DNA of 47,666 bases from Candidatus Phocaeicola gallistercoris (lineage in GTDB: Bacteria; Bacteroidota; Bacteroidia; Bacteroidales; Bacteroidaceae), in the NCBI GenBank assembly GCA_019116145.1, contig DXCG01000150.1, positions 1 through 47,666 of the forward strand, read 5' to 3'. The notes beneath the pieces were generated by a model. The model made no database searches. It was not told the DNA's origin and saw only the letters and a program-made list of their open reading frames with translations. Each line of letters opens with the position of its first letter. The stretch's first letter is position 1. The position numbers were made by a program, and so were the translations under genes. This document shows positions 1-21,559 of the stretch, piece after piece.

Positions 1-1563
1 TGTTTTCCCATGCAGGCATTCTGAAAGGCGTTTCAACAACAAATTCTCTGTTTCCGTATCGAGCGATGATGTCGGTTCATCCAGCAGCAAGACATTACCC
101 GGGCGAAGCAATCCTCTGGCAATAGCAATCCGCTGCGCCTGTCCCTCGCTCAATCCGGCACCTTGCTCACCACACAACGTATCCATACCATCGGGCAAAG
201 CAAAAACAAAATCGGCTGCCGCCATATAAAGAGCCGAACGAAGTTCCCTTTCCGTTGCATTCGGATTGCCTACCATCAGATTATCGCGGATACTTCCACT
301 CACTAACGTATTCCCTTGAGGTACATACGAAAAGTTACAACGCGTAAGGGGAGATATGGTTTCTTCACGCGTCTCGTTATATACTGTCAGACTCCCCTCA
401 TCGGGTTGCATCAATGATAGAATCAGTTTCAGCAAAGTAGTCTTCCCTACTCCCGTCTCACCGATAACGGCAGTCAAGCTTCCGGGGGTGAAATTGTACG
501 TAAAATTAGTGAAAATGGCACGTTTCCCTTCCGGATAAGTAAAACAAATGCCTTCGGCACGAATACCCAAACGCCCTTCTAACCGCACCGCATCGCCCTG
601 TTGCTCCAAAGGTAAAGCCAAAAGTTCTGCCAGCCGTTCGGTAGAAATAAATACACGAATGAAAGAAGGAATCTGGCGGCTTAAATCGACCATCGGTCGT
701 TGCACTTGTGAAACCAACTGGAAGAAAGCCGTCACCATACCAAACGTCACACTTCCATCGCGCAGCCCAAATACGCCCCACAACAAAGCCACGGCATAAC
801 CTGCCATAAAACCCAGTTGCACCATCGAGCGCGAAAAAACCGAAAAATCTGTCCGCTCCATGACTTTGCTGCACAAGGCTTGCTGCATGGAAACAAGGCG
901 TTCTATCGACTGTGAAGTATATTCCAAGGTACGTATCAAGATACGGTTTTGCAAATTCTCCTGCAAATGGCTCTGCACCCGGCTGTCGGTAGCCCGTATT
1001 TCACGTGAGATGCGGCGCATGCGGTTCACATAACGCTTACTGAATAGTAAAGCCACAGGCATGATAAAAACCAAGACGCCGGCAAGACGGGCATCCAATA
1101 TCGAAAGGAAACAAAATGCTCCTGCCAGTTGTACCGTAGTTACTGCCACAGCCGGAATGGTACGGCACAAAGCATCGGTCACTACAACCACATCTTCTTC
1201 CAAGCGGTTCAGCAAGTCGCCGGAATGGAATGCCTCGCGTCCTGCTCCACAACTCTCCATCAGATGCACAAACAACCTGCGGCGCAACTCGTTGCGAAGA
1301 CGGATTTCGGTACGGGCTGACAAACGGCTCCGTATCACCGAAAGCGCCAACTGCATGACCATGCAGCACAACAGCAACCCGATGAATATGTTCAAATCAT
1401 CGTCCGACACACCGGTCGCTATATCGATGAGGTGCTTGCACACATAAACGAAAAACAATGAAACACCAACTTGCGTAATGCCTGCCAACGCATAACCTGC
1501 CATATACAGGCGAAAGCCTGCAGAGACTTTCCATAACCATTTCAAGCATTCATAAATCCGCAT
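1..1563 (-). CDS. ABC exporter (TMD + NBD fusion), 3' end beyond window
   Basis: Not in the ORF track (no stop in window). Translated manually from ATG 1563: MRIYECLKWLWKVSAGFRLYMAGYALAG..., hydrophobic N-terminal half, Walker A GETGVGKTT, signature LSEGQAQRIAIAR, Walker B LLLDEPTSSLD. Confidence 0.92.
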   Translation of the reverse strand, partial: MRIYECLKWLWKVSAGFRLYMAGYALAGITQVGVSLFFVYVCKHLIDIATGVSDDDLNIFIGLLLCCMVMQLALSVIRSRLSARTEIRLRNELRRRLFVHLMESCGAGREAFHSGDLLNRLEEDVVVVTDALCRTIPAVAVTTVQLAGAFCFLSILDARLAGVLVFIMPVALLFSKRYVNRMRRISREIRATDSRVQSHLQENLQNRILIRTLEYTSQSIERLVSMQQALCSKVMERTDFSVFSRSMVQLGFMAGYAVALLWGVFGLRDGSVTFGMVTAFFQLVSQVQRPMVDLSRQIPSFIRVFISTERLAELLALPLEQQGDAVRLEGRLGIRAEGICFTYPEGKRAIFTNFTYNFTPGSLTAVIGETGVGKTTLLKLILSLMQPDEGSLTVYNETREETISPLTRCNFSYVPQGNTLVSGSIRDNLMVGNPNATERELRSALYMAAADFVFALPDGMDTLCGEQGAGLSEGQAQRIAIARGLLRPGNVLLLDEPTSSLDTETENLLLKRLSECLHGKT

Positions 1564-1577
1564 ATTCTCCCTTTTTA

Positions 1578-2039
1578 TTACATTCTACGAAGGAAATACA
1601 ACAAGTAGCGACGCACAGGCAACAACCCGCGCCATAACCCGGACAAGCTCCGTTCTTTCAGCGAACGGCACGACACTGCCCTCCCGTTGCGCACTATCGT
1701 CATCACTTTCCCCGCTATTTGTACCTTTTTACATCTCTCGGTAGCATACAGGTTTCCGTCGCCCATCAGTGCTATGTCTTCACCCCGCTTCTTATATATA
1801 CGGTGCAACACATGTGTGCCGTTATCCAAACGGGCTAAAACAATATCTCCTACTTCCACACCATCGGTTTTCCGCAACGTCACACGGTCGCGGCCGTCTC
1901 TCAGAAAAGGGAACATGCTGGAACCCTTCACGCGCAGCGTTACGGCAAAACCGTCGGACAACATGCAGGTCACTTCCTCAAAAAAAACCTCATTGTTTAT
2001 CTGTACCGGGGCATCTCCCCGCTTCTCCTTATCTGTCAT
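1578..2039 (-). CDS. S24/S26-family peptidase with Ser-His dyad
   Basis: Motifs KGSSMFPFL (catalytic Ser box), GDIVLA, VLHRI (His in place of Lys), GDGN. ORF track starts at 2078; ATG 2039 (MTDKEK) avoids overlap with the HNH gene. Confidence 0.85.
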   Translation of the reverse strand: MTDKEKRGDAPVQINNEVFFEEVTCMLSDGFAVTLRVKGSSMFPFLRDGRDRVTLRKTDGVEVGDIVLARLDNGTHVLHRIYKKRGEDIALMGDGNLYATERCKKVQIAGKVMTIVRNGRAVSCRSLKERSLSGLWRGLLPVRRYLLYFLRRM

Positions 2040-2074
2040 ACATGTATTGTTTTTCTTTGCTGAAAGAAAGCCAG

Positions 2075-2656
2075 TCAACTCTGCCTATACAATTGCCGTA
2101 CCATCGTTTCAAATTCTCCGATAGCCGCAACAAGTTCATCTTCCGTCAAATCCTCTTTCATGAAATTTAAACTTACAATAGCCTTTTTCCGTCGATTTAT
2201 CAAACATCGTTCATTCAAATTAAAATGCTTGATAGTTTGGATTCCCTGTTTACTTTGTCCAATAGCCTGTATTTCTCCGGTAAAGGAATATTCCATGTAA
2301 TCGGCTGGATTATCGACTGCCGGATTAACAAGCCAATCATAATCTTCCTTATTCTTGATTTGTTTATCTTTGAATTTAGCACCATAATTCTCCGCATTAC
2401 AAGAAACCAGCAAATTATTATACTCAAAAGTCTCTTTAGGAAACAAATTACGAGTATGAAAATGATCTATATGACTGTTCGTATTTTCCTTTATTTTAAT
2501 GCCGGTATAAGCGCAACAATCTTTCTGCTCATTTTTCAAAATATATTCCCGAAGTTGCACTCGAATAGGAGCAATATCATTCCAATCTTTCGGCTTTTCC
2601 CTTTTCAGGAAGCCAAAGAAAAAAGCAGGAGGATTTTCTTTATTGACTTTTTGCAT
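2075..2656 (-). CDS. HNH endonuclease, PtuB / retron-associated type
   Basis: EQKDCCAYTG...SHIDHFHTRNLFPKETFEYNNLLVSC...KD pattern; overlaps upstream ATPase by 17 nt. Confidence 0.82.
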   Translation of the reverse strand: MQKVNKENPPAFFFGFLKREKPKDWNDIAPIRVQLREYILKNEQKDCCAYTGIKIKENTNSHIDHFHTRNLFPKETFEYNNLLVSCNAENYGAKFKDKQIKNKEDYDWLVNPAVDNPADYMEYSFTGEIQAIGQSKQGIQTIKHFNLNERCLINRRKKAIVSLNFMKEDLTEDELVAAIGEFETMVRQLYRQS

Positions 2657-3692
2657 AACTCCCCTCCTTTTGCTTTCGCATGATCTCCATTCGTATGAGT
2701 GTCAAATCCAAATCGGAATAGCCTAATAAATTCTCCAAATCCTTCATTTTTTGCAGAAAACACGTATCATTGTATTTGTTTTCTCTCACAGCCATCCGTA
2801 AATCTTCCAGTTTCTTTTCCACATCAGGAACCCGTTGAAAAGGAACGTTCTGTATCTCGTCCAATACTTTTTCAACAGTCCATCCATAGGGACCATCGTT
2901 ACAATGTTCCGCCCGGATTATACCATCTTCATCGCGTGTTAAAATACGTATTTCTTCTTGGTAAGCAGACGATATTACCTGAGGAGAATGCGTAGCAAGA
3001 AAGAACTGGCAATCGTTTTCTTCCGCGCATCGCCTTAAAATAGGCAACAAATAACTTTGCCACGAAGGATGCAACGATGCATCCGGCTCGTCCATAAGGA
3101 TTACACGTCCTTTCATATCCCCCATAAATAAAGGGAGTACTTTCATCAACAATTGTTTCTCACCATCCGATAAGTCATTTGCACCCAATTCAACTCTATC
3201 CCGATTGACAAATTTCAAATGCCTGTCGGCATCCAATCCTTTAAATCGTACCTGCAAATGGAAATCGGCAAACACCATGTCCAGCAAAGATTGTATTTTT
3301 TCGTATGCCTCGAAGCTGGTCTTCCCTTTTTCATAAACAAAATGGTCTACATATCTAACAATCTTCTTTTCCAAATCCGTTGAAGTCGTACTTGTGCTCG
3401 CACTGAAATATAAAACCGAGTCAAAAGCTTCTTCATAGGCTTTATATTGAGTCATAGAAGGAGGAATCGCAAATGTTTTATCTTCTGTCCCAATCCTGAC
3501 TTGGATATTTCCTGTATGGGTTGACGAAACGTCTTTTTTTCTTATGTATTCCAAAAGGGTACTCTTCCCGATTCCGTTGACTCCAGCAATGATAACAATG
3601 CGGAGCGGTTCATTATCAGTACAAAAATCGATATCAAAATTGCGAAACAATTTATAATTATCTATATGGATATGTTTCAGTTTCATGCTCAC
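2640..3692 (-). CDS. ABC/AAA ATPase, PtuA-like
   Basis: N-terminal IHIDNYKLF, Walker A GVNGIGKSTLL, signature LSDGEKQ, Walker B ILMDEPDASLHPSWQ, switch ATHSPQV; no TM segments. Confidence 0.85.
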   Translation of the reverse strand: MSMKLKHIHIDNYKLFRNFDIDFCTDNEPLRIVIIAGVNGIGKSTLLEYIRKKDVSSTHTGNIQVRIGTEDKTFAIPPSMTQYKAYEEAFDSVLYFSASTSTTSTDLEKKIVRYVDHFVYEKGKTSFEAYEKIQSLLDMVFADFHLQVRFKGLDADRHLKFVNRDRVELGANDLSDGEKQLLMKVLPLFMGDMKGRVILMDEPDASLHPSWQSYLLPILRRCAEENDCQFFLATHSPQVISSAYQEEIRILTRDEDGIIRAEHCNDGPYGWTVEKVLDEIQNVPFQRVPDVEKKLEDLRMAVRENKYNDTCFLQKMKDLENLLGYSDLDLTLIRMEIMRKQKEGSYAKSQ

Positions 3693-3738
3693 GTTTTTCT
3701 TCTTTCTTTACTATTATTTCCTCAAACCATGATTTGTA

Positions 3739-3769
3739 CAAAAATACAATTTAATTGACAATAAGCAAT
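3739..3769 (-). promoter_or_regulatory. Putative Bacteroidetes sigma-A promoter for the ATPase-HNH pair
   Basis: Minus-strand TATTTTTG (3739-3746) matches TAnnTTTG; partial -33 (TTG) about 19 nt upstream; about 45 nt before the start codon. Confidence 0.6.
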
Positions 3770-3823
3770 TAGCGACCGACAATTATTTCATTTCATTACA
3801 CCTTCCTTTATACCCCAACACTG

Positions 3824-3880
3824 AAAAAACAAAAAATCCCCTTCCTTTTCCCGCCCGAAGAGGCAGTCCGAGGAAGGGGA
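3824..3880 (-). terminator. Intrinsic terminator after the OmpA-like gene
   Basis: Perfect 10-bp stem TCCCCTTCCT (3837-3846) / AGGAAGGGGA (3871-3880), inner CUUCGG-containing hairpin, followed on the minus strand by UUUUUUGUUUUUU. Confidence 0.8.
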
Positions 3881-3952
3881 CCGATTGAGATATCCTACGT
3901 GAAAGAAGTCATAACCCCTTCACGTGTGACATAGAGAAAAAAAGAGCCTTGT

Positions 3953-4627
3953 TTAATTCCAGCCGCGTGCCTTGAATTTATAAGTAAACCCGATGGTAGC
4001 AGAAAGCATGCCTTCGCCACGTCCACCCGGTTCGCCATCGAAATCATCACTTAGGAACGTGCTGCGCAAATCGACGTTGAAGTCGAGTGCTGAGTTCAAA
4101 CGGAATGTATTCAGAATACCGAAGTGTCCTGTCACACTTGTTTCTTTCGGAGCGTCCGATGTATGTATCACACCGATACCCACATACGGGCTGCAGTTGT
4201 ACAAGCGTTCTTCATCGTATCCCTTGAAAGCATTGCACAAGTTGAACAATGCATCGGCTTGGAAATTATAGAAGTTGAACTTCGAGTGGTACATACCGGT
4301 ACCCCATCCGTCTACTTGTTCGCCGGTAGAATGGGCAACGCCCCAACGGGTAGCCCCTTTTGCCGACAAGCCACTGTACATCAAGCGTGCGCCCACCACA
4401 GGAGTAAACCATTTTCCTACGGCAACATCGATAGCCGGGGAAAGACGGTCGCCAAAAGAAGCCTCTTTGTCGTGGTCGCCAAAATACATGTTCAAACCGC
4501 CTCCCACACTGACAAACCAGTTGTTACGGAAGCTGTTGTCGGAAGTATAAGTACCTCCTGCCTGAGCGAAAGTCGTACATGCAACCAGCAACAAAGCAAA
4601 GGTTGCAAGAATTGTTTTTCTAATCAT
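3953..4627 (-). CDS. Outer-membrane beta-barrel protein (OmpA-family N-terminal domain only)
   Basis: Signal peptide, NWFVSVGGG, VAVGKWFTPVVGARL, terminal IGFTYKF strand; no periplasmic peptidoglycan-binding domain follows. Confidence 0.82.
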   Translation of the reverse strand: MIRKTILATFALLLVACTTFAQAGGTYTSDNSFRNNWFVSVGGGLNMYFGDHDKEASFGDRLSPAIDVAVGKWFTPVVGARLMYSGLSAKGATRWGVAHSTGEQVDGWGTGMYHSKFNFYNFQADALFNLCNAFKGYDEERLYNCSPYVGIGVIHTSDAPKETSVTGHFGILNTFRLNSALDFNVDLRSTFLSDDFDGEPGGRGEGMLSATIGFTYKFKARGWN

Positions 4628-4667
4628 GTCGTTTTATCAATTTTAATAAGTTGTTGTTTCCGTTATA

Positions 4668-6827
4668 TCATTCCCTTACACAACGTACTGCATACGCATC
4701 GCGCAACAAATACTCGTCACGTCCATACGTATTGATGATGTTGCCGGATGTGCTCCCTGAGACAACCGAACCCTCCTTGTACGCATCCGTATTCAGATAA
4801 CAGGCATACGCATGGGCATCGTCTCCTACATAAGATTCACTCGTCCACCAATAACCGCCGGAACCGGCATTATTCTTCTCTTTGCCATTGGTTCCTTCGA
4901 GCGATTTTAAGGCAGGATAATACACCCCTTCGGTATCATCTGCATTCGCTTTGAAATGCCAGTCGCTGCCCGAAACCTTGACATAATTAATGTAGTCCAG
5001 CCGGGCTGCCACAATGGAATTGCCTTCGTTGGGCTCGGTAACATCCTTCGTCGTTCCGGTCGGCATATCGGTGAAACCGCTGAAAGTGAAAATGCTTGCC
5101 ACGCGATAGCCCACGGGCGAAGGGTCATAGATGGTCTTCTGCTGCTTCCAGCCCGCACCGGCAGTGCTTGCGTCGCCCAGCGTCTCGGGCAATTCACGGT
5201 CGCCATCACCCCACAAATAAACATTCACCTTGGTAAGCCAGTTGTATTGTGATGTCTGGGACGAGTGAATGAGGTGCATCGGGTTGCGCACGGCATCGGC
5301 AATGGTGGCATCCATTTCAAGGTTATAATTATAACCTTTCAGGTTGCTCATCTCCTCCTTGGTAGTGCCGTCGATGAAGAAGCTGCGCACCTGAGTGTCC
5401 TTGCCCGGGAACGGGTCTTTGCGCCCCCACTGGTACCGCATCACATTATAGTCGTTGTACGCCGACTTGGCACTCGACCTGCCCAAATCGCGGTCCATTA
5501 CCATAAACTTAGCTCCCGCCTGATTGGTGTATTCCACGTCTTGAGGCATGCCCTGCGTTCCCCAGATGTGCCAGCTCCAGAGGATTTCACCTTGGCAATC
5601 GGGTTCGCTGTAAACGCTAATCACGGCATTGCCGTAGATACTTCCATCAACAGAAGAAGCAATGGCATCGGGAATGGTGTACACCACACGCCCGTTCTCC
5701 AAGCGCACATCGGTCACAAAGTCCTTGCGGTCGCTCCACAACACCTTTGCCGACTTCGGATTGATGTAAGGATTCTCGGTATGGAAGCCCGCACCGGGAA
5801 TGATACCTTTCTGTCCGTTGCCTATTACCGTAGCCTTGAAGCTATGTTCGCCCGGTTCGGTTACGATGTAGCAGTTGGCTGTTTCTTCTTGCAGTTCTTC
5901 GGGGATATCCTCTATTACGGCATCGTTATTTTCAAGTGTTGTAGCCGTAAGCGGAACTACATAATACATACCAGCCTCGAAGTCGCACAAGGCAGTGGTC
6001 GTAAACGTACCCTGCTGGCGGTCGGTCGTAAACACACACGTCCACTCGTTGCCTTTATGTTTTCCCGGAGCCACCACAGCATAAGCTATGGCTTTCTCGC
6101 GAGCCGTAGGCGGTATGGCAAACTGAATGGTAATGCCATCCATGGTATATTCGCCCGGTTGCAAGCCGGCATCGAGATTGGTCAGGTTGTAAGTGAAACG
6201 TCCGGTCATCGGAGCCGCGCCATCCATGCTTTCCCCGGAAGGATGAATGGTCATATCGAGCAGCAGCTCATCGTCTGCCAAATCTTGTTCCCCGGTTAGG
6301 TCTATTTCAAAACGTACCAAAGCAGCCATCTGACGCAGTTTCAAGCTGTAACCGCTTCCCGCATCCGTTATCTCATCGGTTGCCTTAAAGTCGTATTGCG
6401 CTACCGATGAAACATCGCGGTACATCTGCACTTCGGGTATTTCCACTGGGATAGCTGTTTTATCTGTCACACCTTCCTGATAAGGATAATAGGCATACAC
6501 AGGCAAGTCGCTACCCGTCATGGTTCCCGTAAATGTTGTAGAAGAAGCCGGTTCGGTATTGGTACTGGTAAAAGGTTCGTTCACGGCAGACTGCCCGAAC
6601 ACACCGATACGATCGCCCACCGACCATTCCACAGTCAACGCCCCGTCGTCGGCTATATCGCCAATCTGGGTACGGGTGGAAGGAAGGGAAGTAAACACAT
6701 CTGCCGTAGCAAACAAAGAAATCGGTCTTTGTGCCACCGGTTGCGAAGTTTTATTCATATCGGCATCGGTACACGCGGCAGTACATGCCATAAGCAATCC
6801 TATACCGTATAAGGGAATGTTTTTCAT
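4668..6827 (-). CDS. Fimbrillin / type V pilin-like lipoprotein with C-terminal putative adhesin domain
   Basis: Lipobox CTAAC; STRT propeptide motif; WSVGDRIGVF and YAYYPY pilin motifs; TANCYIV, ILWSWHIW, MDRDLG, YQWGRKDPF, DPSPVGYRV, GGYWWTS, terminal AVRCVRE. Confidence 0.82.
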   Translation of the reverse strand: MKNIPLYGIGLLMACTAACTDADMNKTSQPVAQRPISLFATADVFTSLPSTRTQIGDIADDGALTVEWSVGDRIGVFGQSAVNEPFTSTNTEPASSTTFTGTMTGSDLPVYAYYPYQEGVTDKTAIPVEIPEVQMYRDVSSVAQYDFKATDEITDAGSGYSLKLRQMAALVRFEIDLTGEQDLADDELLLDMTIHPSGESMDGAAPMTGRFTYNLTNLDAGLQPGEYTMDGITIQFAIPPTAREKAIAYAVVAPGKHKGNEWTCVFTTDRQQGTFTTTALCDFEAGMYYVVPLTATTLENNDAVIEDIPEELQEETANCYIVTEPGEHSFKATVIGNGQKGIIPGAGFHTENPYINPKSAKVLWSDRKDFVTDVRLENGRVVYTIPDAIASSVDGSIYGNAVISVYSEPDCQGEILWSWHIWGTQGMPQDVEYTNQAGAKFMVMDRDLGRSSAKSAYNDYNVMRYQWGRKDPFPGKDTQVRSFFIDGTTKEEMSNLKGYNYNLEMDATIADAVRNPMHLIHSSQTSQYNWLTKVNVYLWGDGDRELPETLGDASTAGAGWKQQKTIYDPSPVGYRVASIFTFSGFTDMPTGTTKDVTEPNEGNSIVAARLDYINYVKVSGSDWHFKANADDTEGVYYPALKSLEGTNGKEKNNAGSGGYWWTSESYVGDDAHAYACYLNTDAYKEGSVVSGSTSGNIINTYGRDEYLLRDAYAVRCVRE

Positions 6828-6870
6828 AGATTTTTTGCTCTTTTTTTAAGTTCGTTACACATTTTGTTTC

Positions 6871-6903
6871 TAAGAGTATGCAGTATTACTCTGCACACTC
6901 TTA
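6871..6903 (-). promoter_or_regulatory. Intergenic 13-bp RNA hairpin without U-tract
   Basis: Minus-strand UAAGAGUGUGCAG-(7 nt)-CUGCAUACUCUUA; fully paired only on the minus strand (one G-U pair). Confidence 0.6.
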
Positions 6904-6913
6904 TCATTCTTTT

Positions 6914-9301
6914 TTACTGAATAGCGTTTCCTCCTGAAACAAAAGTTGCATCATAATTCAACGTTCCAGAATCATTTCCATCTCCTTTTATTTTTAATTG
7001 GAAACGGAAATTATTTTCCACAACTATTTGTGGCAGCCATTGCCCATAAACATCACGTTGACCTCCCGAAGCAACATTACTGTTAACAAAAGCTTCGCCA
7101 AAGAAGTTCATCAATACAATCCCGATAGGACCAGAGTTTGTTTCTGGATTTGCCAAATATTCATAGATAGGACCATTGATTTGGTTGGCTGCCAATACGG
7201 TGTTACCACTCTGACCTAAAGCCGTATTGTAACTTTGGTCTTCATTAACAATACAGAAACCTCCCAAGTTATTGACAAACCAATTCGAAGTTTCTCCTAA
7301 GTTATTGTTCTCGATAGCTTTCTGGAAGAAGTTTTTCGTGATGTCAATCTTCAACTGAATACGACCGCTAAAAGTCGAAGTATTAGGAATATTTGGATTT
7401 TCAGGATTTTCCAAGCGTTCCATATGTTGTTTCCATACATGGATTCCCGAGCCCGGTCCTTCCGGTATCATATAATAAGGATAAGTGATGTCACGGTCGT
7501 TGGATGAATAGAGCGTAGACATGATATCTTTTCCATTTTCATCATATGCCTGACGCATAAACACGTAGTTTGTTACATCGGTAGACGGCGTGAAAGTAAA
7601 GCCGGCATACTCTTCACCGCCTATCCACCCAGCATGTACAGCCCCCTCAGACTGCGGAAGATTGGGTGCCTGATAATTAACAAAGACAAGAATCTTTCCC
7701 TTCAAATCGGCAATGGTGGTTTCTGGCGTGACACCATGAACCAACTCGACACCAGTAGTACTGGAGAAGTTATCCAAGATACGGTCTATCTCACGAATCC
7801 AACGTCTTACCTCCCTATACTTGGTATTATCCAGATTAGTTCCACTGGTTACCATCTGCTTATAGTTTATATTCAAGACAATGAATTCTTGACAAGTACG
7901 TCCTTGAGGTGCTTTATAATTATCAATTGCATTCTTCAGCATAGAAGCATAATTTTCCAACACGATTAATAAGTTATCTTTTTGCGTATTGGCATCGTAA
8001 ACATACAATGAATAATCATTATTCCAGTTTGTATACGATAGGCCATCACTTACAGCATTATCAAAATCATCGTTGCTAAAACCCACCATGAACGAGAATG
8101 CACGTGCCCCGGCTTGGAACTGTTCTTCTATTGTCCGTTTTTGATAAGCACCCATCACCGTATTCGACTCTGTAACACCCGAGGCTACAGAATACGAGTT
8201 GTGTGTTCCCGGAATAGAAAGCTGTGAAAAATATGTATTCTCATTCAAAGCAGACAACCAATAATAAAAATCCGTACCACGAAGTGCAGGCAATGAAGTT
8301 ATATTGATTTTACGAGCCTTAATATCGGCTGTACTTAATATTTTAGTATTACTACCTTGTCCTACCATATTAACAGTAACAGCAGTCTGCGATGCTTCCG
8401 GGTTTGCATAAGGCAACATAAATGCTTTTACTACCAATTTTTCGCCTACACCTAACGTTACAGGTTCCCAACCTCCAGTTTCATTTTGATAATATGTCGG
8501 TATCGTTATATCTGTATTTACTACTCCTTCATCTATCGCAGAACATTTACCATCCTCAGGATCGTTCACGTCATCTGCCACAGTAAGTGCAAAATCGCCC
8601 GATATAGCAACACTTGAACGAACAAGCACTTGTGAAACTTGTAAAGACTGTGGACCAGTTCCATCAGGACCATTCACTGTTATTTCCAATGTAGTCACCA
8701 TCGGTTTAAAATTCAAAGAAATAGGTTTATCCCCTTGTGATAACCGAGAAACTTCAGTATGAGCATACATATATGCATAATTCATATTCGGATAAGCAGT
8801 CCATGTATTTCCCTCTTTTTTTATGCTAATAGGAGACTGTCTACTTGGTAAATTAAGAGTAACAGAAGTGGCACTCGTTCCTCCCTTAGAGGCACTCGCA
8901 GGATAAATTGCATAAAAATCATGCTCATCCTCAGAACTCCATTGTAAACCATTTTCTCCCGGATTCACTTTTGCCAAAGTACCCGTAGTAGAATTTTCAT
9001 TATCTACTTGCACTTCATAAGTAAACTCCTTATAAGGTTGCGGAGCAGAAGCCTGAGGGCAATAAATACCAATCTGATCTCCATTTACCCAGTAAATTGG
9101 ATAAGAATCACCATCACGATCCCCATATATTGTCCGTGAACCATTTTTGTCACTAAATTCATAAATACCATGTACTGCTGCAAATTGAATATCTTCGCCT
9201 ACAGTTGCAGGAAAACTTACAACTTTTTCTTCTAAGGCGTCATCCTGACATGCCGTCAGTGCTAATAATACAACACCTGTAAAAAAAATACTTCTTTTCA
9301 T
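6914..9301 (-). CDS. Fimbrillin / type V pilin-like lipoprotein fused to a PI-PLC X-like domain
   Basis: Lipobox LALTAC; SRT motif, WVNGDQIGIY, FYAIYP, LNFKP; C-terminal half has LSIPGTHNS...IEEQFQAGARAF...TIADLKGKILVF...GPIGIVLMNF. Confidence 0.82.
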   Translation of the reverse strand: MKRSIFFTGVVLLALTACQDDALEEKVVSFPATVGEDIQFAAVHGIYEFSDKNGSRTIYGDRDGDSYPIYWVNGDQIGIYCPQASAPQPYKEFTYEVQVDNENSTTGTLAKVNPGENGLQWSSEDEHDFYAIYPASASKGGTSATSVTLNLPSRQSPISIKKEGNTWTAYPNMNYAYMYAHTEVSRLSQGDKPISLNFKPMVTTLEITVNGPDGTGPQSLQVSQVLVRSSVAISGDFALTVADDVNDPEDGKCSAIDEGVVNTDITIPTYYQNETGGWEPVTLGVGEKLVVKAFMLPYANPEASQTAVTVNMVGQGSNTKILSTADIKARKINITSLPALRGTDFYYWLSALNENTYFSQLSIPGTHNSYSVASGVTESNTVMGAYQKRTIEEQFQAGARAFSFMVGFSNDDFDNAVSDGLSYTNWNNDYSLYVYDANTQKDNLLIVLENYASMLKNAIDNYKAPQGRTCQEFIVLNINYKQMVTSGTNLDNTKYREVRRWIREIDRILDNFSSTTGVELVHGVTPETTIADLKGKILVFVNYQAPNLPQSEGAVHAGWIGGEEYAGFTFTPSTDVTNYVFMRQAYDENGKDIMSTLYSSNDRDITYPYYMIPEGPGSGIHVWKQHMERLENPENPNIPNTSTFSGRIQLKIDITKNFFQKAIENNNLGETSNWFVNNLGGFCIVNEDQSYNTALGQSGNTVLAANQINGPIYEYLANPETNSGPIGIVLMNFFGEAFVNSNVASGGQRDVYGQWLPQIVVENNFRFQLKIKGDGNDSGTLNYDATFVSGGNAIQ

Positions 9302-9313
9302 TTTCTACACTTT

Positions 9314-9496
9314 TTAATAATCCCAATCACTTCCACTTTCAAAATAATTACTTTCAGCTCCAACTTCTTGGTTTTCAATAGAAATAGTAGGTTCTTTTTC
9401 TTTATCTACATCAATGATAGAGCCATTCATGAATCCACTTTCCAGTTCCACTTCCGTATAGCAGGTTTGTGGACTTACATACGTTTCTTTTTTCAT
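9314..9496 (-). CDS. 60-aa acidic peptide, candidate RiPP-like precursor
   Basis: MKKETYVSP (YxxP) leader, E-rich EVELESGFMNGS, acidic C-terminus ending SGSDWDY; ends 12 nt before the pilin start; AT-rich upstream region. Confidence 0.72.
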   Translation of the reverse strand: MKKETYVSPQTCYTEVELESGFMNGSIIDVDKEKEPTISIENQEVGAESNYFESGSDWDY

Positions 9497-9501
9497 ACCA
9501 T

Positions 9502-9618
9502 TTACCTCTCTTTCTGTTTTAATTCATTATTAAAAGTTAGTACTCTCCTTTCTGAAAGCCTCATGCCTCCTGCATGGGTTCTTTCGTTTTGTTCTTCTTC
9601 TTTTTTTCGCATAGACAT
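9502..9618 (-). CDS. Possible 38-aa small ORF
   Basis: Manual translation MSMRKKEEEQNERTHAGGMRLSERRVLTFNNELKQKER; fills the gap between wzc and the 60-aa ORF; no motif recognised. Confidence 0.25.
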   Translation of the reverse strand: MSMRKKEEEQNERTHAGGMRLSERRVLTFNNELKQKER

Positions 9619-9645
9619 TTATTAAATTAAAATTAAAGTTTAACG

Positions 9646-11991
9646 TTATTTCTTTTTATGTTTGGTTCCGTAGCCATATCCGTAACCATATCCATAGCCA
9701 TAGCCGTACCCGTAACCATATCCTTGGCGATGCGGATTGATGCCGTTCAGCACCAAAGCCATGTTGTGGAGTTTATGCTCCTGATACAGCATCTCAATGT
9801 CGGGCAACTGGCGGCGGTCTAATTTACCGGCACGCACCACAAACACGGTAATATCGGCAATACGGTTGGCAATAGCGGCATCGGCAATGATTCCCACCGG
9901 CACATTGTCGGCAATGATGTAATCGTAACGGGAACGCAGCTCGGCAACCAGCTCGTCCAAACGACTGTCCATAAGCAATTCGGCAGGATTGGGTGCCGAT
10001 ACTCCGGCAGGAATGACATCGAACGACTCGTGCTTTTGTATGATATCGTCGACCGTCACCGAACGATCGGACAAATAATTGGTCACTCCTTTCTTTTGTC
10101 CTCCCAAAACACGGCTCAAGGTTCCTTTACGAATATCCAAATCGAGCAACACAACACGCTTCTTGGCATAGACAAAGCTCATGGCAAGATTGTGCGAGAT
10201 GAATGTCTTTCCGGCACCTTCGTTGAACGAAGTAAAAGTAATTACCTGCAAAGGGCGGTCTTTCTTCGCCATAAATGCCATGTTGGTACGCAACACACGG
10301 AATGCCTCGGACACAATATCGTCTCTCGAATCTTTGATTTCCTTTTTACGCCGCTTCGCCATTTTCTTGTCGAACGGGATTTCGCCCAAGAAAGGCACGC
10401 TCACCGCCTTTTCCACATCCTTGCGGGTATGTATGCGGGTATCCATGAAAAGTACCATGAGGCATGCGCATCCCGGCAACGCCAACCCGATAAGTATGCC
10501 CAACAGCAAGATGCGGTTGCGCTTGGGCGATATGGGTGCGTCGCTTCCGTCGGCACTGTCTATCACCCGCGCATTGTTGTCGGCCATAGCTTGCGACAAG
10601 GCATTTTCCTCACGCCGGTTCAACAGGAACATATAGAGCGACTCTTTTATTTTCTGCTGCCGCTCGATGGAAAGCATCTGCCTTTCTTTCGAAGGGATAG
10701 ACACCACGCGGCTCTGTGCCCTCATCTCCCGGTTTTGTGCATCGTTGCGCTTCACTTCCAAACTGACAATCATGTTATCGACCGCCCGGATGATGTTCTG
10801 CTTCATGGCACGCAACGAGTTGTTCAGTTCTTGCACAACCGGGTTGTTTTCGCTGCTGTCGTCTATCAGCCGGTCTCTCCTCAGCTTCGCCGTATTGTAA
10901 TTGTTTATTTGCGTTTCGATGTTCATATCGCTAAGCCCGGTATTGGAAGGAATCAAGTCGGTTTCCTTGGTCGGGTCGGTAAGATACTCCTTTATATAAT
11001 TGGCAAGGCGCAACTGGGTTTCCAGTTCCATGGCATCGGTATTGTATTTCTGCGACTCGCTGATATACATTCCTGCCGTAGTGGAAATATCGATAATCTC
11101 ATTGCGCTGCTTGAACGTCTGCAAATCGGTTTCCACACTCCCCAACTCATTTTCGATGATAATGAGCCGTTCGTTGATGAAATTTGCCGTATTGACAGCC
11201 ACTTGGTTCTTATCTTTAATCGCCTCTTCGTTGTAAACGGTAATCAGCATATTGAGCATGTCTTCCGCACGTTCCGGCGAATTGTCTTTCAACGCCAGTT
11301 CAAGAATGGACGATTCTTCCCCCTCCTGCCGTATGCCAACAGAATTTCTGTAATAATCGGTCACAGTTTCCAAAGAACGTTTCTGCACGAAGATTTCTTT
11401 TCCCACCCACGAATTATTATAAAAATGGGTAGGTGTGGCAACCACCCTCATGCCATTGTAAAGCGCCACGGTATCGTTTAACGCAATGCGGCGTGCCGAC
11501 TGTACATTCAGTCCCGCGAAATTGGCAAGCACCACTGTTTTGTCGCTTTGAGGGATGAGCGTAAAAGAGAAACGTTGTTCCGGCAAAGCATCGGGAAAAC
11601 TAATCAGTACCGGCGACTGCGTGTACAGTTCATTATACCGCAAACCGTCTGCTATCTGGTAACTGACATCGGCATGTACACGCTGTACCACCTCGCGCAT
11701 CAGTTTTTTGGAACTGAACTGCACAATTTCGTTGGCAACATTGACCTTATTGATAATATTATCGAAACGGTCTAACGAAGTGGTAGACGTTTTATTCGAC
11801 GGGTCTTTGATGATAACAGTGGCAGAACGGAAATAAACCAATGGTGCTTTGGCATAATTGTACCACGCAATGGCTCCGCACACCACTACGGAAAGCAAAA
11901 ACCATTTCCATTTGGATGCAAAATAAAGCAACAGGTCTAACACATTCAGGCTCTGATCGGCTTTATTGGCAGATGTATTGTTTGTTTGCAT
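9646..11991 (-). CDS. wzc: Polysaccharide co-polymerase / BY tyrosine autokinase
   Basis: Two TM segments around a coiled-coil periplasmic region; EAFRVLRTN, Walker A NEGAGKT, DLDIRK, PNPAELL, C-terminal (GY)n cluster. Confidence 0.95.
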   Translation of the reverse strand: MQTNNTSANKADQSLNVLDLLLYFASKWKWFLLSVVVCGAIAWYNYAKAPLVYFRSATVIIKDPSNKTSTTSLDRFDNIINKVNVANEIVQFSSKKLMREVVQRVHADVSYQIADGLRYNELYTQSPVLISFPDALPEQRFSFTLIPQSDKTVVLANFAGLNVQSARRIALNDTVALYNGMRVVATPTHFYNNSWVGKEIFVQKRSLETVTDYYRNSVGIRQEGEESSILELALKDNSPERAEDMLNMLITVYNEEAIKDKNQVAVNTANFINERLIIIENELGSVETDLQTFKQRNEIIDISTTAGMYISESQKYNTDAMELETQLRLANYIKEYLTDPTKETDLIPSNTGLSDMNIETQINNYNTAKLRRDRLIDDSSENNPVVQELNNSLRAMKQNIIRAVDNMIVSLEVKRNDAQNREMRAQSRVVSIPSKERQMLSIERQQKIKESLYMFLLNRREENALSQAMADNNARVIDSADGSDAPISPKRNRILLLGILIGLALPGCACLMVLFMDTRIHTRKDVEKAVSVPFLGEIPFDKKMAKRRKKEIKDSRDDIVSEAFRVLRTNMAFMAKKDRPLQVITFTSFNEGAGKTFISHNLAMSFVYAKKRVVLLDLDIRKGTLSRVLGGQKKGVTNYLSDRSVTVDDIIQKHESFDVIPAGVSAPNPAELLMDSRLDELVAELRSRYDYIIADNVPVGIIADAAIANRIADITVFVVRAGKLDRRQLPDIEMLYQEHKLHNMALVLNGINPHRQGYGYGYGYGYGYGYGYGYGTKHKKK
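9667..9723 (-). repeat. G(YG)9 tyrosine-cluster coding repeat of Wzc
   Basis: 19 codons, degenerate 6-nt period with varied third positions. Confidence 0.85.
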
Positions 11992-12014
11992 AGTGTCTGA
12001 AAAAAATATAAACG

Positions 12015-12830
12015 TTACTTAATTGCCCAAAGAATAGAACATACAGCCGTTACGACAGACAGTAAGGTCGTACCGATTTGCCATCCGCGGTCTTCGCCAT
12101 CTTTCTTCCGGTATTTCGGCTCTACATATATAATGTCGTTTTGCTGAAGATAAAAACACGGAGAATCGAACACATCTTTGCTCCGCAAGTCGTGCATGAA
12201 CATCTGGCGGTTGCCATCTATTTCCCGGATCACAGCTACCCGGTTGATTCTAGCCTTCGACGTAAGGTCGCCCGCCTTGGCAATTGCTTCGAGCAACGTC
12301 ACCCGGTCGCCGTCGGCAGAGAATGTACCATTACTCCCTACGGCTCCCAACACGGTGTACTTAAAGTTCAAGAACTCGATAGCCACCAGCGGGTCTTTCA
12401 TGTAATTACCTTCTTCTATTTTAGTCTTTATCAAATCGGTCACTTCGCTCACTTTCAACCCTTCCACATGCAACTTACCCAAAATAGGAAAATCGATGTT
12501 ACCATCTATGTCTACCCGGTATCCTTTCTCGTTCACTTTTGTCGAGGCATCGGCAGTGACATTCCCATCGGAACCTACATGGAAATTGCCTCCGTAAATA
12601 TTGAACGGGATGGCAAGCTCCGGATTTTTACAACTAACGGTAATACTTAAACGGTCGTCGCGATGAACAATTGCCTCGTACTTGCTTTCCATGGGGTATT
12701 TCACTCCCATCTCCATGTCTTGCAAATAGACAAACTTTTTACGCGACGCGCAAGAATTCAATAATAACAAGGTAAGCAAACTTACCCACAATAACATCGA
12801 TTTATTCATATAAAAATTACGTTGATTCAC
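12015..12830 (-). CDS. wza: Polysaccharide export outer-membrane lipoprotein
   Basis: Lipobox LLNSC; DDRLSITV, GNIDFPILGKLHVEGL, SLBB TLLEAIAKAGDL, YLQQNDIIYVEP. Real start may be ATG 12809. Confidence 0.95.
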   Translation of the reverse strand: MNQRNFYMNKSMLLWVSLLTLLLLNSCASRKKFVYLQDMEMGVKYPMESKYEAIVHRDDRLSITVSCKNPELAIPFNIYGGNFHVGSDGNVTADASTKVNEKGYRVDIDGNIDFPILGKLHVEGLKVSEVTDLIKTKIEEGNYMKDPLVAIEFLNFKYTVLGAVGSNGTFSADGDRVTLLEAIAKAGDLTSKARINRVAVIREIDGNRQMFMHDLRSKDVFDSPCFYLQQNDIIYVEPKYRKKDGEDRGWQIGTTLLSVVTAVCSILWAIK

Positions 12831-12833
12831 TTC

Positions 12834-13718
12834 TTAATTTTGAGCTTCTGTTATTCCATGAAAGCATAGGCGGGCAGCTTCTTCATCCGGACGGCAAGCC
12901 AATGTGCCTACCACCGTAACTTCTGCCAGCCGAGCCAATGTATCGTATAAACTATTCCGGAGAGCCACATCCTGGCTGATCACCGAACAGCCCGGATAGA
13001 TTGCCACAAAAGCATCGCTCCCGCTGCACAGGCGGAAACGATTTTCGGGAGCCTGCCTTAAACGAACCATCCCGCCCACAGGAAATGCGCATTGCTTATA
13101 GCAAGGAGTCTTCCCGCTCCATGGTGTGCCATACGCCATTGCCATATTTCCTACCATACGGATTGTGGGATTATCGTCGTTCAACAGTTCGCACCCGGGA
13201 ATGTATTTCATCCACAACGCAGCATGGGTACTTTTCCCCGTCCCGCTCTTCCCCATAAACAAATATGCCTTCCCTCCACAAGAAACGGCTGCCGCATGAA
13301 GAGAAACCGCCCCTTTGCGAAGTACGGATTGGGAATAGGCAATACGAATCAAAGAAGACAGTACGTTTCCCGCATGTATATCGTCCCAGCGTACAAAGGC
13401 GCGGACAGATGAAAAGTCCTTATCGGCAAGCAGGTAATGCATCACATTTCCCAGCAACAACGAGACTCCATACCCCATCGGCATACGATACAAACGCAGA
13501 CGACCCATATCGTTGGTCACATCTTCCAGCATTTCTCCCTCCATGGTGAAAGAAGAAACATCGCACACCGGTGCAGAAAGATGAAACAAGTTTTCACCTT
13601 CGGGCATATCGCCGCATAAAAAAGGGCGAAAAGAAGGTAAAAGCTGATTCATATCTTCTTTTTCGGGGATACAAACCGAAAAAGAAAAACCGGCCACACT
13701 GTAATGATATCTCGTCAT
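12834..13718 (-). CDS. HPr-kinase/PEPCK-like P-loop kinase
   Basis: LHAAAV, Walker A GKSGTGKSTH, LLNDD, GTPWSGK; 4-nt overlap with the upstream gene. Confidence 0.85.
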   Translation of the reverse strand: MTRYHYSVAGFSFSVCIPEKEDMNQLLPSFRPFLCGDMPEGENLFHLSAPVCDVSSFTMEGEMLEDVTNDMGRLRLYRMPMGYGVSLLLGNVMHYLLADKDFSSVRAFVRWDDIHAGNVLSSLIRIAYSQSVLRKGAVSLHAAAVSCGGKAYLFMGKSGTGKSTHAALWMKYIPGCELLNDDNPTIRMVGNMAMAYGTPWSGKTPCYKQCAFPVGGMVRLRQAPENRFRLCSGSDAFVAIYPGCSVISQDVALRNSLYDTLARLAEVTVVGTLACRPDEEAARLCFHGITEAQN

Positions 13719-14809
13719 TTAAACTGTCCTTTTAATAAATCCAAACAAAGCCACGAAACTTCTTTGGGCGCATACCGGAATGAAAAACCTATATTCCCGA
13801 GAAATGAGCGAGCCGTGTGCATTTTACGACTGAATACCGATGCCGAAGCAGGTAAGGAACGCTCTGCATGAAGACCGAAATTTCCGCCTTTCCACACAAT
13901 ATCGAGCAACGGACCGGCTGTAGAAGCCATTTCCACACCGGGCAAATATGCCTTCGGAAAGCCGAGCACGTTTACTAAAAAAGCCCATAACAAATTGTTC
14001 CATTTCTCAAGACCTAACCGCTTATTTGCCAGCATCATTTTTTCGTCGTCTATTTCGTGGCGAAACATGTAGCAAGCACGTGCCATATCGCATAATTGTC
14101 GCATTCCTATCCCTCTTCCCAACGTATGTTTCAGAATGTGCAAATTTAGCAATAAAATGTTCAAAAAAGGAGAAGGTATTGTTATTTTTTTTCCCGACTC
14201 TTGCGATATTTTAACGTTTTGCCATCCCCATTGCCGTTCCAATGTTTTCAGATATTTCCGGAAAAACGGATTATAGCAATCGAACAAACGTGTATGATGC
14301 TCTATATCAATACCTTGCCACACGTAAAACGCACTCCCGTCGGGTTGTCTCCGCACAGGAATGCCTTGTTTCTGCATGTCGGAAAGAATTTTTTCGGAAT
14401 GTGCCTTGTCTGTAAAATAAAAATCAATATCTCCACACTCACGCAACAAAGGAGATGCATAACATAATGCCACTCCCTGCCCTTTTTGCAATACCGGCAC
14501 CGGACCGGTTTCGGCAAACCGGGTATAAAACTCGTCTATCACCCGATTCATTTTCCGGTTTTTCCGCTCAATGGCATCAACCGCTGCCACCCAACGCATC
14601 AGCAAAGCAGGAGGAGGCAAGCACTCGTCCGGCAGAAACTGTATCCCCCGGAAAAGTATGCCCGTTACGGTCTGTTCCTGAGCCAAACGAAACAAATCTT
14701 TCCATACCTCGTCCGGAAGCGGGAAGCACGACAAGTCGTCCATTTTCCGCTCCCACAACCCGGCTTGCAACAATACAAGAAATGCGTTGTGTACGAAATG
14801 CTTATCCAT
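13715..14809 (-). CDS. Nucleotidyltransferase family protein (NTP_transf_5 type)
   Basis: VLQKGQGVALCY..PLLRECGDIDFY, IEHH, LHILKH, GIGMRQLCD. ORF track start 14851 overlaps pqqD; ATG 14809 preferred. Confidence 0.87.
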   Translation of the reverse strand: MDKHFVHNAFLVLLQAGLWERKMDDLSCFPLPDEVWKDLFRLAQEQTVTGILFRGIQFLPDECLPPPALLMRWVAAVDAIERKNRKMNRVIDEFYTRFAETGPVPVLQKGQGVALCYASPLLRECGDIDFYFTDKAHSEKILSDMQKQGIPVRRQPDGSAFYVWQGIDIEHHTRLFDCYNPFFRKYLKTLERQWGWQNVKISQESGKKITIPSPFLNILLLNLHILKHTLGRGIGMRQLCDMARACYMFRHEIDDEKMMLANKRLGLEKWNNLLWAFLVNVLGFPKAYLPGVEMASTAGPLLDIVWKGGNFGLHAERSLPASASVFSRKMHTARSFLGNIGFSFRYAPKEVSWLCLDLLKGQFK

Positions 14810-14820
14810 GCATCTTGTGG

Positions 14821-15105
14821 TTAAGGAAGAAGCAGCCCGTATGCCTTCCACTCATCCAGTTGCTTTCTGACATCACTTAATGCCGTTGATTCATCAACCT
14901 CGTACAAGTTGCACAAATCATGTGCAAGTGTCTGGCAAGTAGCATTCCCCTGCTCTATCTGTTGCCATAACCGGGCGGCAGTGTGGTTCAGGGTGTACAC
15001 ATTGCTCATGTTTACATTCTGCTCGTCGGCTTTCACAATCATATACTGACTGCCGATTTTCCGCAACTGCAATCCGTCTTTCTTTTTGATCACGTTTTCT
15101 TCCAT
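14821..15105 (-). CDS. PqqD-family protein / RiPP recognition element
   Basis: 94 aa; LRKIGSQYMIV, YTLNHTAARLWQQI, LCNLYEVDESTALSDV...GLL (three strands + three helices pattern). Confidence 0.9.
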   Translation of the reverse strand: MEENVIKKKDGLQLRKIGSQYMIVKADEQNVNMSNVYTLNHTAARLWQQIEQGNATCQTLAHDLCNLYEVDESTALSDVRKQLDEWKAYGLLLP

Positions 15106-15106
15106 T

Positions 15107-15781
15107 TCAGAATTTCTTTCCGGAAATAATAGAATATACTGTAAGATAAATAATTTTGGTGTCGAGCCACAAAGAACGTGTATGCAAATATTCCAAGTCC
15201 ATGCGCAAACGCTCTAACATTTTTTCCATGGTATCTGTGTATCCATTGTACAACGTTGCCGGCGAAAAAAGCCCCGGACGCAACTGATACAGCAATTCAT
15301 AGTCCGGATTGATAGCCATAATCTTATCGATAAAAAATTTACGCTCCGGACGCGGACCGACAAAACTCATATCCCCTTTCAACACATTCCATAACTGCGG
15401 CAACTCATCTAAATGGTGACTACGCAGAAAACTTCCGACTCTCGTCAAGCGTTTATCGTTTTTCGTACACAATGCCGGTTTCCCGTCTGCCTCCGAACGT
15501 ACGGTCATAGAACGGAACTTATACAAGGTAAAAGGCTTTCCGCCATACCCTATACGCTCTTGTTTGAAGATGACAGGTCCTCCATCTTCGCGCTTGATGA
15601 GCCAGTAAATCACCAAAAACACAGGCGAGAAGACCAACAATCCCACCAAACTGGCAATAACATCCAATAAACGTTTCACGCTACATGCTGTAACAGACAT
15701 TTTGCTCTTACTGTAAGAATCCGATTTACACATATCACTCCCTAAATCTTTAAGAAAAGCATTCATGTTTCCCTCTCTCAT
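15107..15781 (-). CDS. Priming phosphoglycosyl transferase (monotopic bacterial sugar transferase)
   Basis: KRLLDV, FKQERIG, YKFRSM, LDELPQLWNVLKGDMSFVGPRPE. Confidence 0.95.
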   Translation of the reverse strand: MREGNMNAFLKDLGSDMCKSDSYSKSKMSVTACSVKRLLDVIASLVGLLVFSPVFLVIYWLIKREDGGPVIFKQERIGYGGKPFTLYKFRSMTVRSEADGKPALCTKNDKRLTRVGSFLRSHHLDELPQLWNVLKGDMSFVGPRPERKFFIDKIMAINPDYELLYQLRPGLFSPATLYNGYTDTMEKMLERLRMDLEYLHTRSLWLDTKIIYLTVYSIISGKKF

Positions 15782-20584: not shown

Positions 20585-21559
20585 TTATCTGAAGATTAAT
20601 CCATAAATAAACTTATGGACAAATTTATAATAGAAACTGATCAACCAATATTGTCCATTCGCTGCCAACTGTTGCAAAATGCGTCTACGCACGCTAACAT
20701 TTTTATTTCGTGAGATATAAACATTCGCTTCCGGATACCATGACTTCCACAATTCATGTCTTCGGGAATCATCGCTGATCAGAAAAGGATATTTCACATC
20801 CAGCTTAAAGAACTCCATTTCTGTCCTCAGCCTGTCTCCATATCTGGCTTCCAGAAAACACAAAGTGTCTTGTACGTTATGCCTTAATTCCACCAAATGC
20901 TTATCAGAATAAGTGTTTGAAAAGGCCAAAGCATTTAGTTTCACATAATGATAGAAAGCTTTTGGTAAATATGCCACTGTTTTCGCACATGCAAAAAGTT
21001 TTATCATAGTCATATCCTCACCCATCCCATAACCGGTAGGAAAAGATATGGCATTGACCGTATAAAGCTCACGCCGTACCAGCTTATTCCATACATTATA
21101 CTTCATCACACCGCTTAACATACCTTTCAACGCACCCATCGCGGAATCATAATGAGGTTGTTTCATGTAACGTTCATTCTTCTCAAAAGAAAGGAACCAG
21201 TCACACCAGACAATGTCTGCATTCTCACTTTCAGCCTTTTCATAAAGACCTTCCAACATGTCAGCCTCAACAAAATCATCACTATCACAATGAAAGACAT
21301 ATTCTCCTTTAGCCACAGCCAATCCCGTATTCCGTGCGGCGGGCAAGCCCTTGTTGACCTCATGCACAATAAATGTGACCAGCCTGTCGGGATAATCTTC
21401 TGCAACTTGTTTCGCAATAGATATGCTATTATCGGGCGAACAATCGTCCACCACTATAAACTCCACATCCTGCAGTGTCTGCTCCATTAACGAACGCATA
21501 CACCGTCCGATGAAAGACTCCACCTTATAGACAGGAACGATAACTGAAACTTTTATCAT
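20585..21559 (-). CDS. Glycosyltransferase family 2
   Basis: VSVIVPVYK, VDDCSPD, GLPAARN, CDSDD, GED. Confidence 0.93.
   Translation of the reverse strand: MIKVSVIVPVYKVESFIGRCMRSLMEQTLQDVEFIVVDDCSPDNSISIAKQVAEDYPDRLVTFIVHEVNKGLPAARNTGLAVAKGEYVFHCDSDDFVEADMLEGLYEKAESENADIVWCDWFLSFEKNERYMKQPHYDSAMGALKGMLSGVMKYNVWNKLVRRELYTVNAISFPTGYGMGEDMTMIKLFACAKTVAYLPKAFYHYVKLNALAFSNTYSDKHLVELRHNVQDTLCFLEARYGDRLRTEMEFFKLDVKYPFLISDDSRRHELWKSWYPEANVYISRNKNVSVRRRILQQLAANGQYWLISFYYKFVHKFIYGLIFR

Follow-up and report, generated by a model that had tools for sequence, protein, structure and literature searches.

We analysed a 47,666-nt stretch of DNA from Candidatus Phocaeicola gallistercoris (DXCG01000150.1; below, the window), which is one entire contig (C34) of a genome that is 82% complete, and found a capsule operon that combines a 60-aa precursor peptide and two type V pilins with counterparts to every gene of the clusters (lppA-K-B-S-D-N) that Popov et al. 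2026 (PMC13381572) described in Paenibacillus alginolyticus for linear polyphosphorylated peptides (LPP). On balance, the locus is probably a Bacteroidales version of this phosphopeptide pathway, placed in a capsule operon, with a product that would serve the pilin encoded directly behind its precursor. The gene identities, the conserved gene order, the conserved catalytic motifs and the joint inheritance of peptide core and pilin are established here.

All the genes of the system lie on the minus strand. Three of them encode a discrete RRE of the PqqD family (14821..15105; PF05402, E 2.5e-14), an NTP_transf_5 nucleotidyltransferase-fold enzyme (NTase; 13715..14809; PF14907, 1e-33) that is the counterpart of LppN and PsmN, and an HprK-like kinase corresponding to LppK (12834..13718), which has no Pfam match and was identified by its motifs and weak profile matches. 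The precursor (9314..9496) is marked by a Y6xxP9 leader and an invariant Ser26, and by its alignment, codon pattern and allele switch. Behind it come pilin 1 (6914..9301; PF13149, 1.2e-13), an Mfa-like lipoprotein with a C-terminal PI-PLC-fold barrel, and pilin 2 (4668..6827; PF13149, 5.9e-11), an Mfa-like lipoprotein of 719 aa. Farther along are a signal-peptidase-I-like (S24/S26) leader peptidase, the LppS counterpart (1578..2078; PF00717, 9e-11), and an MsbA-like ABC exporter, the LppD counterpart (1..1563; PF00664 and PF00005), which is cut by the contig end.

Similarity among the predicted cores follows similarity among the neighbouring pilins. Between core and pilin 1 the Mantel r was 0.50, and the nearest neighbour lay within the top three for 22 of 24; the corresponding values were 0.24 and 5/24 for wzc, 0.10 and 2/24 for the kinase, and 0.16 and 3/23 for the NTase. 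In partial correlation with the core, pilin 1 reached 0.47 and wzc 0.14, although wzc is equally adjacent. Because pilin 2 tracks the core as pilin 1 does (r 0.45) and the outer-membrane barrel gene that follows it does not (r 0.16; 28 loci), the core and both pilins appear, from their sequences, to form one exchangeable block.

Two alleles were seen in near-identical strains, in contigs from RNA libraries, which cover the operon but give no measure of transcription or expression level. The window allele occurs in runs X1, X5, X9 and X10, a second allele in X14, X16 and X18, which come from three public studies, and X14 holds both. The second allele is identical to the window through codon 23 (Met23) and differs from codon 24 onwards, with the switch at 9427; read by hand, it has Ile-Asp-Ser in place of Asn-Gly-Ser, so that Ser26 is retained. 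Pilin 1 behind the second allele is replaced and matches the window in short pieces only. This switch suggests that the leader ends at Met23 and that the Ser is the third residue of the core, as it is in LppA, a position that Ser26 would hold only with a cut after Met23.

The order priming transferase, RRE, NTase, kinase, wza, wzc, peptide, pilins and barrel recurs in 27 other loci of nine genera, made up of 11 of 40 fetched kinase neighbourhoods, 15 of 20 peptide-match loci and one of 16 NTase loci (from a second genus). The ORF (open reading frame) caller merged or missed single genes in some of these capsule-type loci (PqqD in L035, the NTase in both L034 and L153, the peptide in L140), and contig ends truncate L139 and L147; all were counted on their remaining order. 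Since the order recurs this often and the leader varies most at third codon positions, the arrangement is beyond chance. The preliminary description of the window, drawn up from its letters, had reported the RRE, NTase and kinase as tightly packed behind the priming transferase, followed on one strand by wza-wzc, a 60-aa YxxP peptide, two pilins, a barrel, an S24/S26 peptidase and an ABC exporter; both statements hold, on the minus strand, and the neighbourhood comparison that it had proposed bears out the co-occurrence with wza/wzc, pilins and a YxxP ORF. Its gene list passed over a defence gene pair between barrel and peptidase and the PI-PLC-fold domain of pilin 1.

Of 48 genomes from the genus, 33 contain relatives of the window kinase, and most of the remaining kinase neighbourhoods among the 40 are compact stand-alone cassettes. 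Within the 27 capsule-type loci the peptidase was called directly behind the barrel in five and the exporter in seven; 14 of the 15 capsule-type genomes lacking a peptidase in the fetched stretch hold one elsewhere, and the exception is a genome that is 85% complete. In a sample of 200 genomes drawn from across the order, 26 have the kinase and 25 the peptidase; 22 have both, in every case within about 4 kb of each other. Eleven of the 200 genomes give a peptide match, and nine of these have the kinase, compared with 17 of the 189 others (Fisher p 1.2e-7, with kin not fully independent); of the other two, one has the peptidase only and one has neither. At the genus level, a lipoprotein-type gene stands directly behind the peptide in 17/19 loci, including loci far from both capsule genes and cassettes, and 10 of 16 scanned downstream genes match Mfa_like_1 at E <=0.05. 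The capsule-located NTases form a branch of their own in a quick tree (15 rows, SH-aLRT 99), and the 12 capsule-type kinases fall on one branch in theirs (100/97), with the tree groups partly picked as best matches to the window kinase.

Two further arrangements were seen. In L107, L110, L113 and L115, which belong to other families, the gene immediately ahead of the YxxP peptide encodes a large secreted protein with a C-terminus that resembles a type IX secretion signal. Five of the 40 kinase neighbourhoods (L043 and L065-L068) lie in a capsule or glycosyltransferase locus that has one or two radical SAM genes and up to two RREs, and in four of these five we saw 129-140-aa YxxP peptides in which Cys replaces the Ser of the short peptides.

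In the peptide alignment (n=12), Tyr6, Pro9, Thr11, Val16, Glu19, Ser26 and Trp58 are invariant; the leader pattern is YxxPxTxxxxVELExGF(M/C)xxS. Variation of the leader at the three codon positions is 0.33/0.24/0.54, highest at the third (19/19 peptides given). The predicted border between leader and core falls after Met23 (9428/9427), which would leave a strongly acidic core of 37 aa (10 D/E, 2 K/R). No NCBIfam family was found for the 22 members, and an atlas search with the peptide returned unnamed clusters only (model pLDDT 0.31). A genome-wide motif scan recovered the window peptide, a paralogue on contig C74 and one unconvincing ORF, with one match in the reversed control.

The modification enzymes retain their key residues. 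Among 22 RRE homologues, D78 is invariant and N40 is conserved in at least 90%, and this Asn40/Asp78 pair aligns by eye with Asn33/Asp70 of LppB, which bind YxxP; in profile searches the lasso RREs TfuB1 (6.6e-9) and PbaB1 (0.0024) came ahead of LppB (9x8z, E 0.47). In the kinase, H141, the Walker A motif at 156-164 (G159-x-G161-K162-S163-T164) and D182 are invariant across 25 homologues. Its ScmC and HprK_rel A/B matches are weak (E 6e-5 to 8e-4, below cut-off), HPr kinase 1ko7 appears at E 4e-4 among many P-loop matches, and a single-kinase scan of the genome contigs gave one 15-residue match only.

The NTase has an invariant G126-D127-x-D129 and E170 (alignment of 19), and its model (pLDDT 90) is tied between MenT1 (Z 11.4) and ANT(2'') (Z 10.7) as nearest fold. 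In the capsule-type loci L034 and L153 the NTase seems interrupted, with no full ORF called and one stop reported, and in view of this the enzyme may be dispensable. The peptidase, which lacks a transmembrane anchor, has an invariant S54, H92 and D107, the last preceded by Gly106 (alignment of 20; numbering from the TTG start, the probable true start being the ATG at 2039); its best PDB match is SEC11A (E 9e-4), and in most rows Thr with an adjoining Glu occupies, by eye, the place of LppS Asp93. For the exporter, about 545 aa long in relatives, the best NCBIfam match is MsbA (4e-65, below cut-off).

Pilin 1 has the hallmarks of a type V pilin, including the lipoprotein Cys18 and an invariant R56-T57 processing site. 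Foldseek with its model (mean pLDDT 64) matched both the pilin-like 3t2l (2.8e-12) and PI-PLC (4.9e-12), and also 3sy6 and 3ufi. His367 of the PI-PLC fold is present in the window protein and absent in 11/12 aligned proteins; the first catalytic His of PI-PLC is that of the IPGTH motif, and the second His was not located here. A Pfam scan of the C-terminal parts of pilins 1 and 2 gave nothing at 0.05.

The likeness to LPP clusters is extensive. LPP clusters are defined by five genes, for a signal-peptidase-I-like peptidase, an RRE of the discrete type, a kinase of the HprK-like kind, an NTP transferase plus an exporter resembling MsbA, and in Bacilli they have also been placed in capsule loci (PMC13381572). 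The window shares all five genes, the absence of a cyclase, the YxxP leader, the Asn/Asp pair of the RRE, one conserved Ser just past the leader, the capsule-locus placement and a peptidase with Ser and His, an N-terminal helix and no transmembrane anchor. Several features differ. The consensus YxxPxVLxHQxIxFETxxS does not describe the window leader, which ends in G-F-M and not F-E-T, and the distance from Tyr to Ser is 20 in the window and 18 in LPP. LppS has catalytic Ser29/His68/Asp93, whereas the window has Ser54/His92 with, by eye, a Glu one place later as the putative third acid. Moreover, wza/wzc and the pilins split the genes here, Mfa-like lipoproteins accompany the precursor, and the phylum is Bacteroidota. 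The paper states that LPP is restricted to Bacillota; "Bacteroid" is absent from its main text, and its supplement has five Bacteroidota rows with peptidase and RRE, in other clusters with the precursor "not determined" (PMC13381572). The window system probably works like LPP, and is a variant rather than a strict member because its leader departs from the consensus and a profile search with its RRE ranks LppB below lasso RREs. A set of these five genes accompanied by a YxxP peptide does not make a new class; what sets the window apart from LPP is the split layout embedded in a capsule operon, the pilin pairing, the inheritance of core and pilins as a block and the allele switch after Met23. 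A search of the open-licence literature returned no description of a Bacteroidales LPP or of a peptide-pilin pairing.

Two other groups of systems resemble the window in part. The clusters for the lasso peptides paeninodin and pseudomycoidin (PsmK, PsmN, PsmD; PMC6993621) share the HprK-like kinase, the discrete RRE and the ABC exporter, and PsmN shares with the window NTase a DxD motif and an ANT(2'')-like fold; the window differs from what is described of them in having no macrolactam cyclase or B2 protein and a Ser near the N-terminus of the core rather than at its C-terminus. CPS8 of Bacteroides thetaiotaomicron is likewise a capsule operon holding type V pilin homologues, being the one capsule locus of that species with FimA homologues, and it promotes biofilm (PMC7315117); the CPS8 passages available to us do not mention a peptide pathway. 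The named control genome has matches to PF14907 and PF05402, and a published table gives BT0057 and BT0059 as hypothetical, BT0060 as a polysaccharide export protein and BT0066 as an OmpA homologue (PMC1976400), a gene order that would fit. As for the catalogued cassettes of HprK-related kinases and PqqD proteins (TIGR04352, TIGR04353, TIGR04355, TIGR04249), the kinase and RRE matches (E 6e-5 to 8e-4) were all far below cut-off, and membership in these families was rejected.

Taken by analogy with these systems, the pathway would begin with binding of the Y6xxP9 leader by the RRE, whose binding Asn/Asp residues are conserved. The kinase would then place one or more phosphates on the invariant Ser26, as LppK polyphosphorylates Ser3 of its substrate (PMC13381572). 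The Ser/His peptidase would remove the leader, most likely after Met23, to give the 37-aa acidic core with Ser at position 3, and the ABC exporter would move the core to the periplasm. We regard these four steps together, which correspond to the non-lasso RRE pathway of cleavage, Ser phosphorylation and export already proposed in the preliminary description and match what was shown for the five-gene LPP set from Paenibacillus, as highly probable. After leader removal and before export, the NTP_transf_5 enzyme could add a sugar or another activated group to the phosphate, a step to which we give slightly more credence than not; the donor would perhaps come from the capsule pathway, and the group added would be a hexose by analogy with PsmN, which is needed for the +162/+324 hexose additions in the pseudomycoidin cluster (PMC6993621). 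The latter makes the nucleotidylation suggested earlier less likely than glycosylation on the phosphate. The predicted product is a phosphorylated and probably sugar-decorated peptide. Finally, the core may work together with the Mfa-like lipoprotein that it is matched to, helping it to fold, to assemble or to be displayed at the surface, a step for which joint inheritance leaves the chances evenly balanced.

Several points weigh against this interpretation. For Bacteroidales the pathway is a prediction from genes and their comparison. LppS cleaves after F-E-T in an RRE-dependent manner, and LppN was without activity (PMC13381572). The FET motif required by LppS is missing from the window leader, so that the predicted cut site is an extrapolation; moreover, the residue preceding Ser is Ala or Gly in 17/19 peptides, which also fits a cut directly before Ser26, an alternative that we consider less likely but well worth keeping in mind. 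The RRE profile is no closer to LppB than to lasso RREs, and several stand-alone cassettes have no NTase call (L045-L047, L049, L061, L063). The allele switch is one event, and recombination would produce a switch wherever homology ends; similarly, the block inheritance of core and pilins may stem from recombination in the conserved flanks on either side rather than from contact between the products. Outside the family, at the order level, a lipoprotein gene follows the peptide in only 6/15 loci, and several other peptides adjoin secreted surface proteins.

The placement of the RRE, NTase and kinase between the priming transferase and wza invites another explanation, in which the phospho-Ser peptide is the acceptor for the first sugar or for the finished Wzy polymer and acts as a tether between the capsule and the cell or pilus. 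The separate branches of capsule-located NTases and kinases (SH-aLRT 99; 100/97) point the same way, though the groups were partly chosen as best matches to the window kinase, and so do the capsule loci with LPP clusters reported in Bacilli. However, a priming transferase and a Wzx-type flippase are both encoded in the locus itself, so that no peptide primer is needed, the cores track the pilins and not wzc, and both cassettes and peptide-pilin pairs often occur apart from capsule genes. We therefore consider a capsule anchor possible, less supported than the pilin-serving reading, and on the whole unlikely. Accordingly, of the link to pilus or capsule that the preliminary description had raised, the pilus part gains comparative evidence, and the capsule primer or anchor rests on position, the enzyme set often being found away from capsule genes. 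A variable core whose neighbour varies with it, together with the exchange of alleles inside a single species, would also suit a free secreted phosphopeptide, a signal or weapon, with the neighbouring lipoprotein as its receptor or guard and not a pilus partner; the patchy distribution of LPP has been read as biological conflict (PMC13381572). The PI-PLC-like barrel without its His in 11/12 proteins could bind a phosphate group. This core, unlike typical bacteriocins, is strongly acidic; the ABC exporter alone reaches the periplasm only, and the partners retain the lipobox, the R-T site and the pilin fold, which makes a secreted peptide improbable in our estimation.

It is harder to credit that the 60-aa ORF serves the pilin genes as a leader in translation or regulation, with the enzymes acting on other proteins. 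The ORF is always about 10-30 bases ahead of the pilin, and many cassettes have no peptide nearby, as such a role would have it, but YxxP and Ser are conserved at the residue level with synonymous variation, the peptide co-occurs with the kinase at the genome level (9/11), and peptides lie inside the cassettes of L053, L070, L159, L163 and L164. The least plausible explanation, and one we give almost no weight, is a usual lasso cluster of the paeninodin type whose cyclase and B2 genes lie beyond the window, despite the shared accessory genes, the contig end that stops the window and the 82% completeness of the genome. PF13471 (B2) was over cut-off in 0/55 genomes of the genus and NF033535 (cyclase) in 0/5 genomes, its weak matches (557-577 aa) lying far from the locus and recurring in control genomes including E. 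coli. The only PF00733 match in the genome is a 405-aa protein with an SGGxDS motif, presumably of the tRNA thiouridylase type, and the gene call following the exporter lies on the opposite strand in 6/7 loci of relatives. The absence of a lasso cyclase and B2 pair, noted at the outset for the window, extends to searches of its own genome, which is 82% complete and gave no B2 match.

The remaining genes frame the cassette within one minus-strand run from 38950 to 1, which opens with a NusG-family (UpxY-type) gene, the flippase and glycosyltransferases. The priming sugar-phosphate transferase (Bac_transf, 15107..15781; PF02397, 1.4e-62), the last capsule-synthesis gene ahead of the cassette, holds the same position in relatives and is one base from PqqD; 11 bases separate PqqD from the NTase, the NTase and kinase overlap by 4, and 3 bases separate the kinase from the gene for the Wza polysaccharide export lipoprotein (12015..12830; PF02563, 1.6e-17). 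The Wzc tyrosine autokinase and chain-length regulator (9646..11991; TIGR01007, above cut-off) is followed after 149 bases by the peptide, and the peptide after 12 bases by pilin 1. The outer-membrane barrel (3953..4627), with a weak TIGR04565 match only (0.0042) and a conserved position, has 224 aa in the window, 230 in L039, 212 in L041 and about 400 in most relatives; a 10-base inverted repeat lies behind it (3837-3880). Between barrel and peptidase are PtuA and PtuB (2640-3692 and 2075-2656; PADLOC 4.5e-78 and 1.2e-55), a Septu-type defence pair with a GC content of 0.38 against 0.48-0.50 on both sides. Because position 2076 is linked to 3824 by just 103 letters, with no PtuA/PtuB, in contigs from runs X9 and X14, the pair is a strain-variable insertion outside the pathway, and in strains without it the barrel, peptidase and exporter are therefore adjacent.

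The source genome holds a second kinase-PqqD-NTase-wza piece on C140 (3-2968) and a second precursor on C74 (15-218), behind wzc with three unrelated genes between. Within the capsule locus, an HpcH/citrate-lyase-fold gene and a MaoC dehydratase (31797-33144), with an acetyltransferase, WbqC and a DegT aminotransferase as neighbours, may provide an unusual acyl group for an amino sugar, and there are two Core-2/I-branching glycosyltransferases and a UDP-galactopyranose mutase (21556-22407, 25591-26451, 28562-29698). Upstream of the run, between a tyrosine integrase (39432-40643) and the NusG-family gene (38384-38950), are inverted repeats of 27-28 bases, two copies (39162-39188 and 39220-39246) opposite to one (about 39388-39415). 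They flank a match (39251-39282), directed into the operon, to what we take to be the Bacteroidota-type promoter pattern, which occurs twice in the window against 1.25 expected by chance. This region is likely an invertible promoter with two alternative ends, which would make the operon phase-variable. A sigma-70 promoter and terminator scan gave no excess over chance (33 vs 29.5; 12 vs 16.3).

A more far-reaching proposal, and a rather unlikely one, is that gut Bacteroidales provide each type V pilin module with its own sequence-matched phospho-glycosylated peptide. In this operon the peptide would carry a sugar from the capsule pathway on its phospho-Ser and bind its own pilin, giving a single phase-variable adhesive coat that couples capsule and pilus, with core and pilin swapped together as a surface serotype. 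Short of that, the study of LPP found neither the final product nor the function (PMC13381572), and these points, with the role of the NTP transferase, could be approached through this locus in culturable gut Bacteroidales. It offers the pilin as a candidate partner, two naturally occurring alleles whose leaders are identical, and a capsule locus as a possible source of the sugar donor that a heterologous host lacks. Should the peptide act on pilins, this would be a case of a ribosomal peptide serving as a structural or assembly factor, and it could bear on how the pilin-bearing capsule locus CPS8 promotes biofilm.

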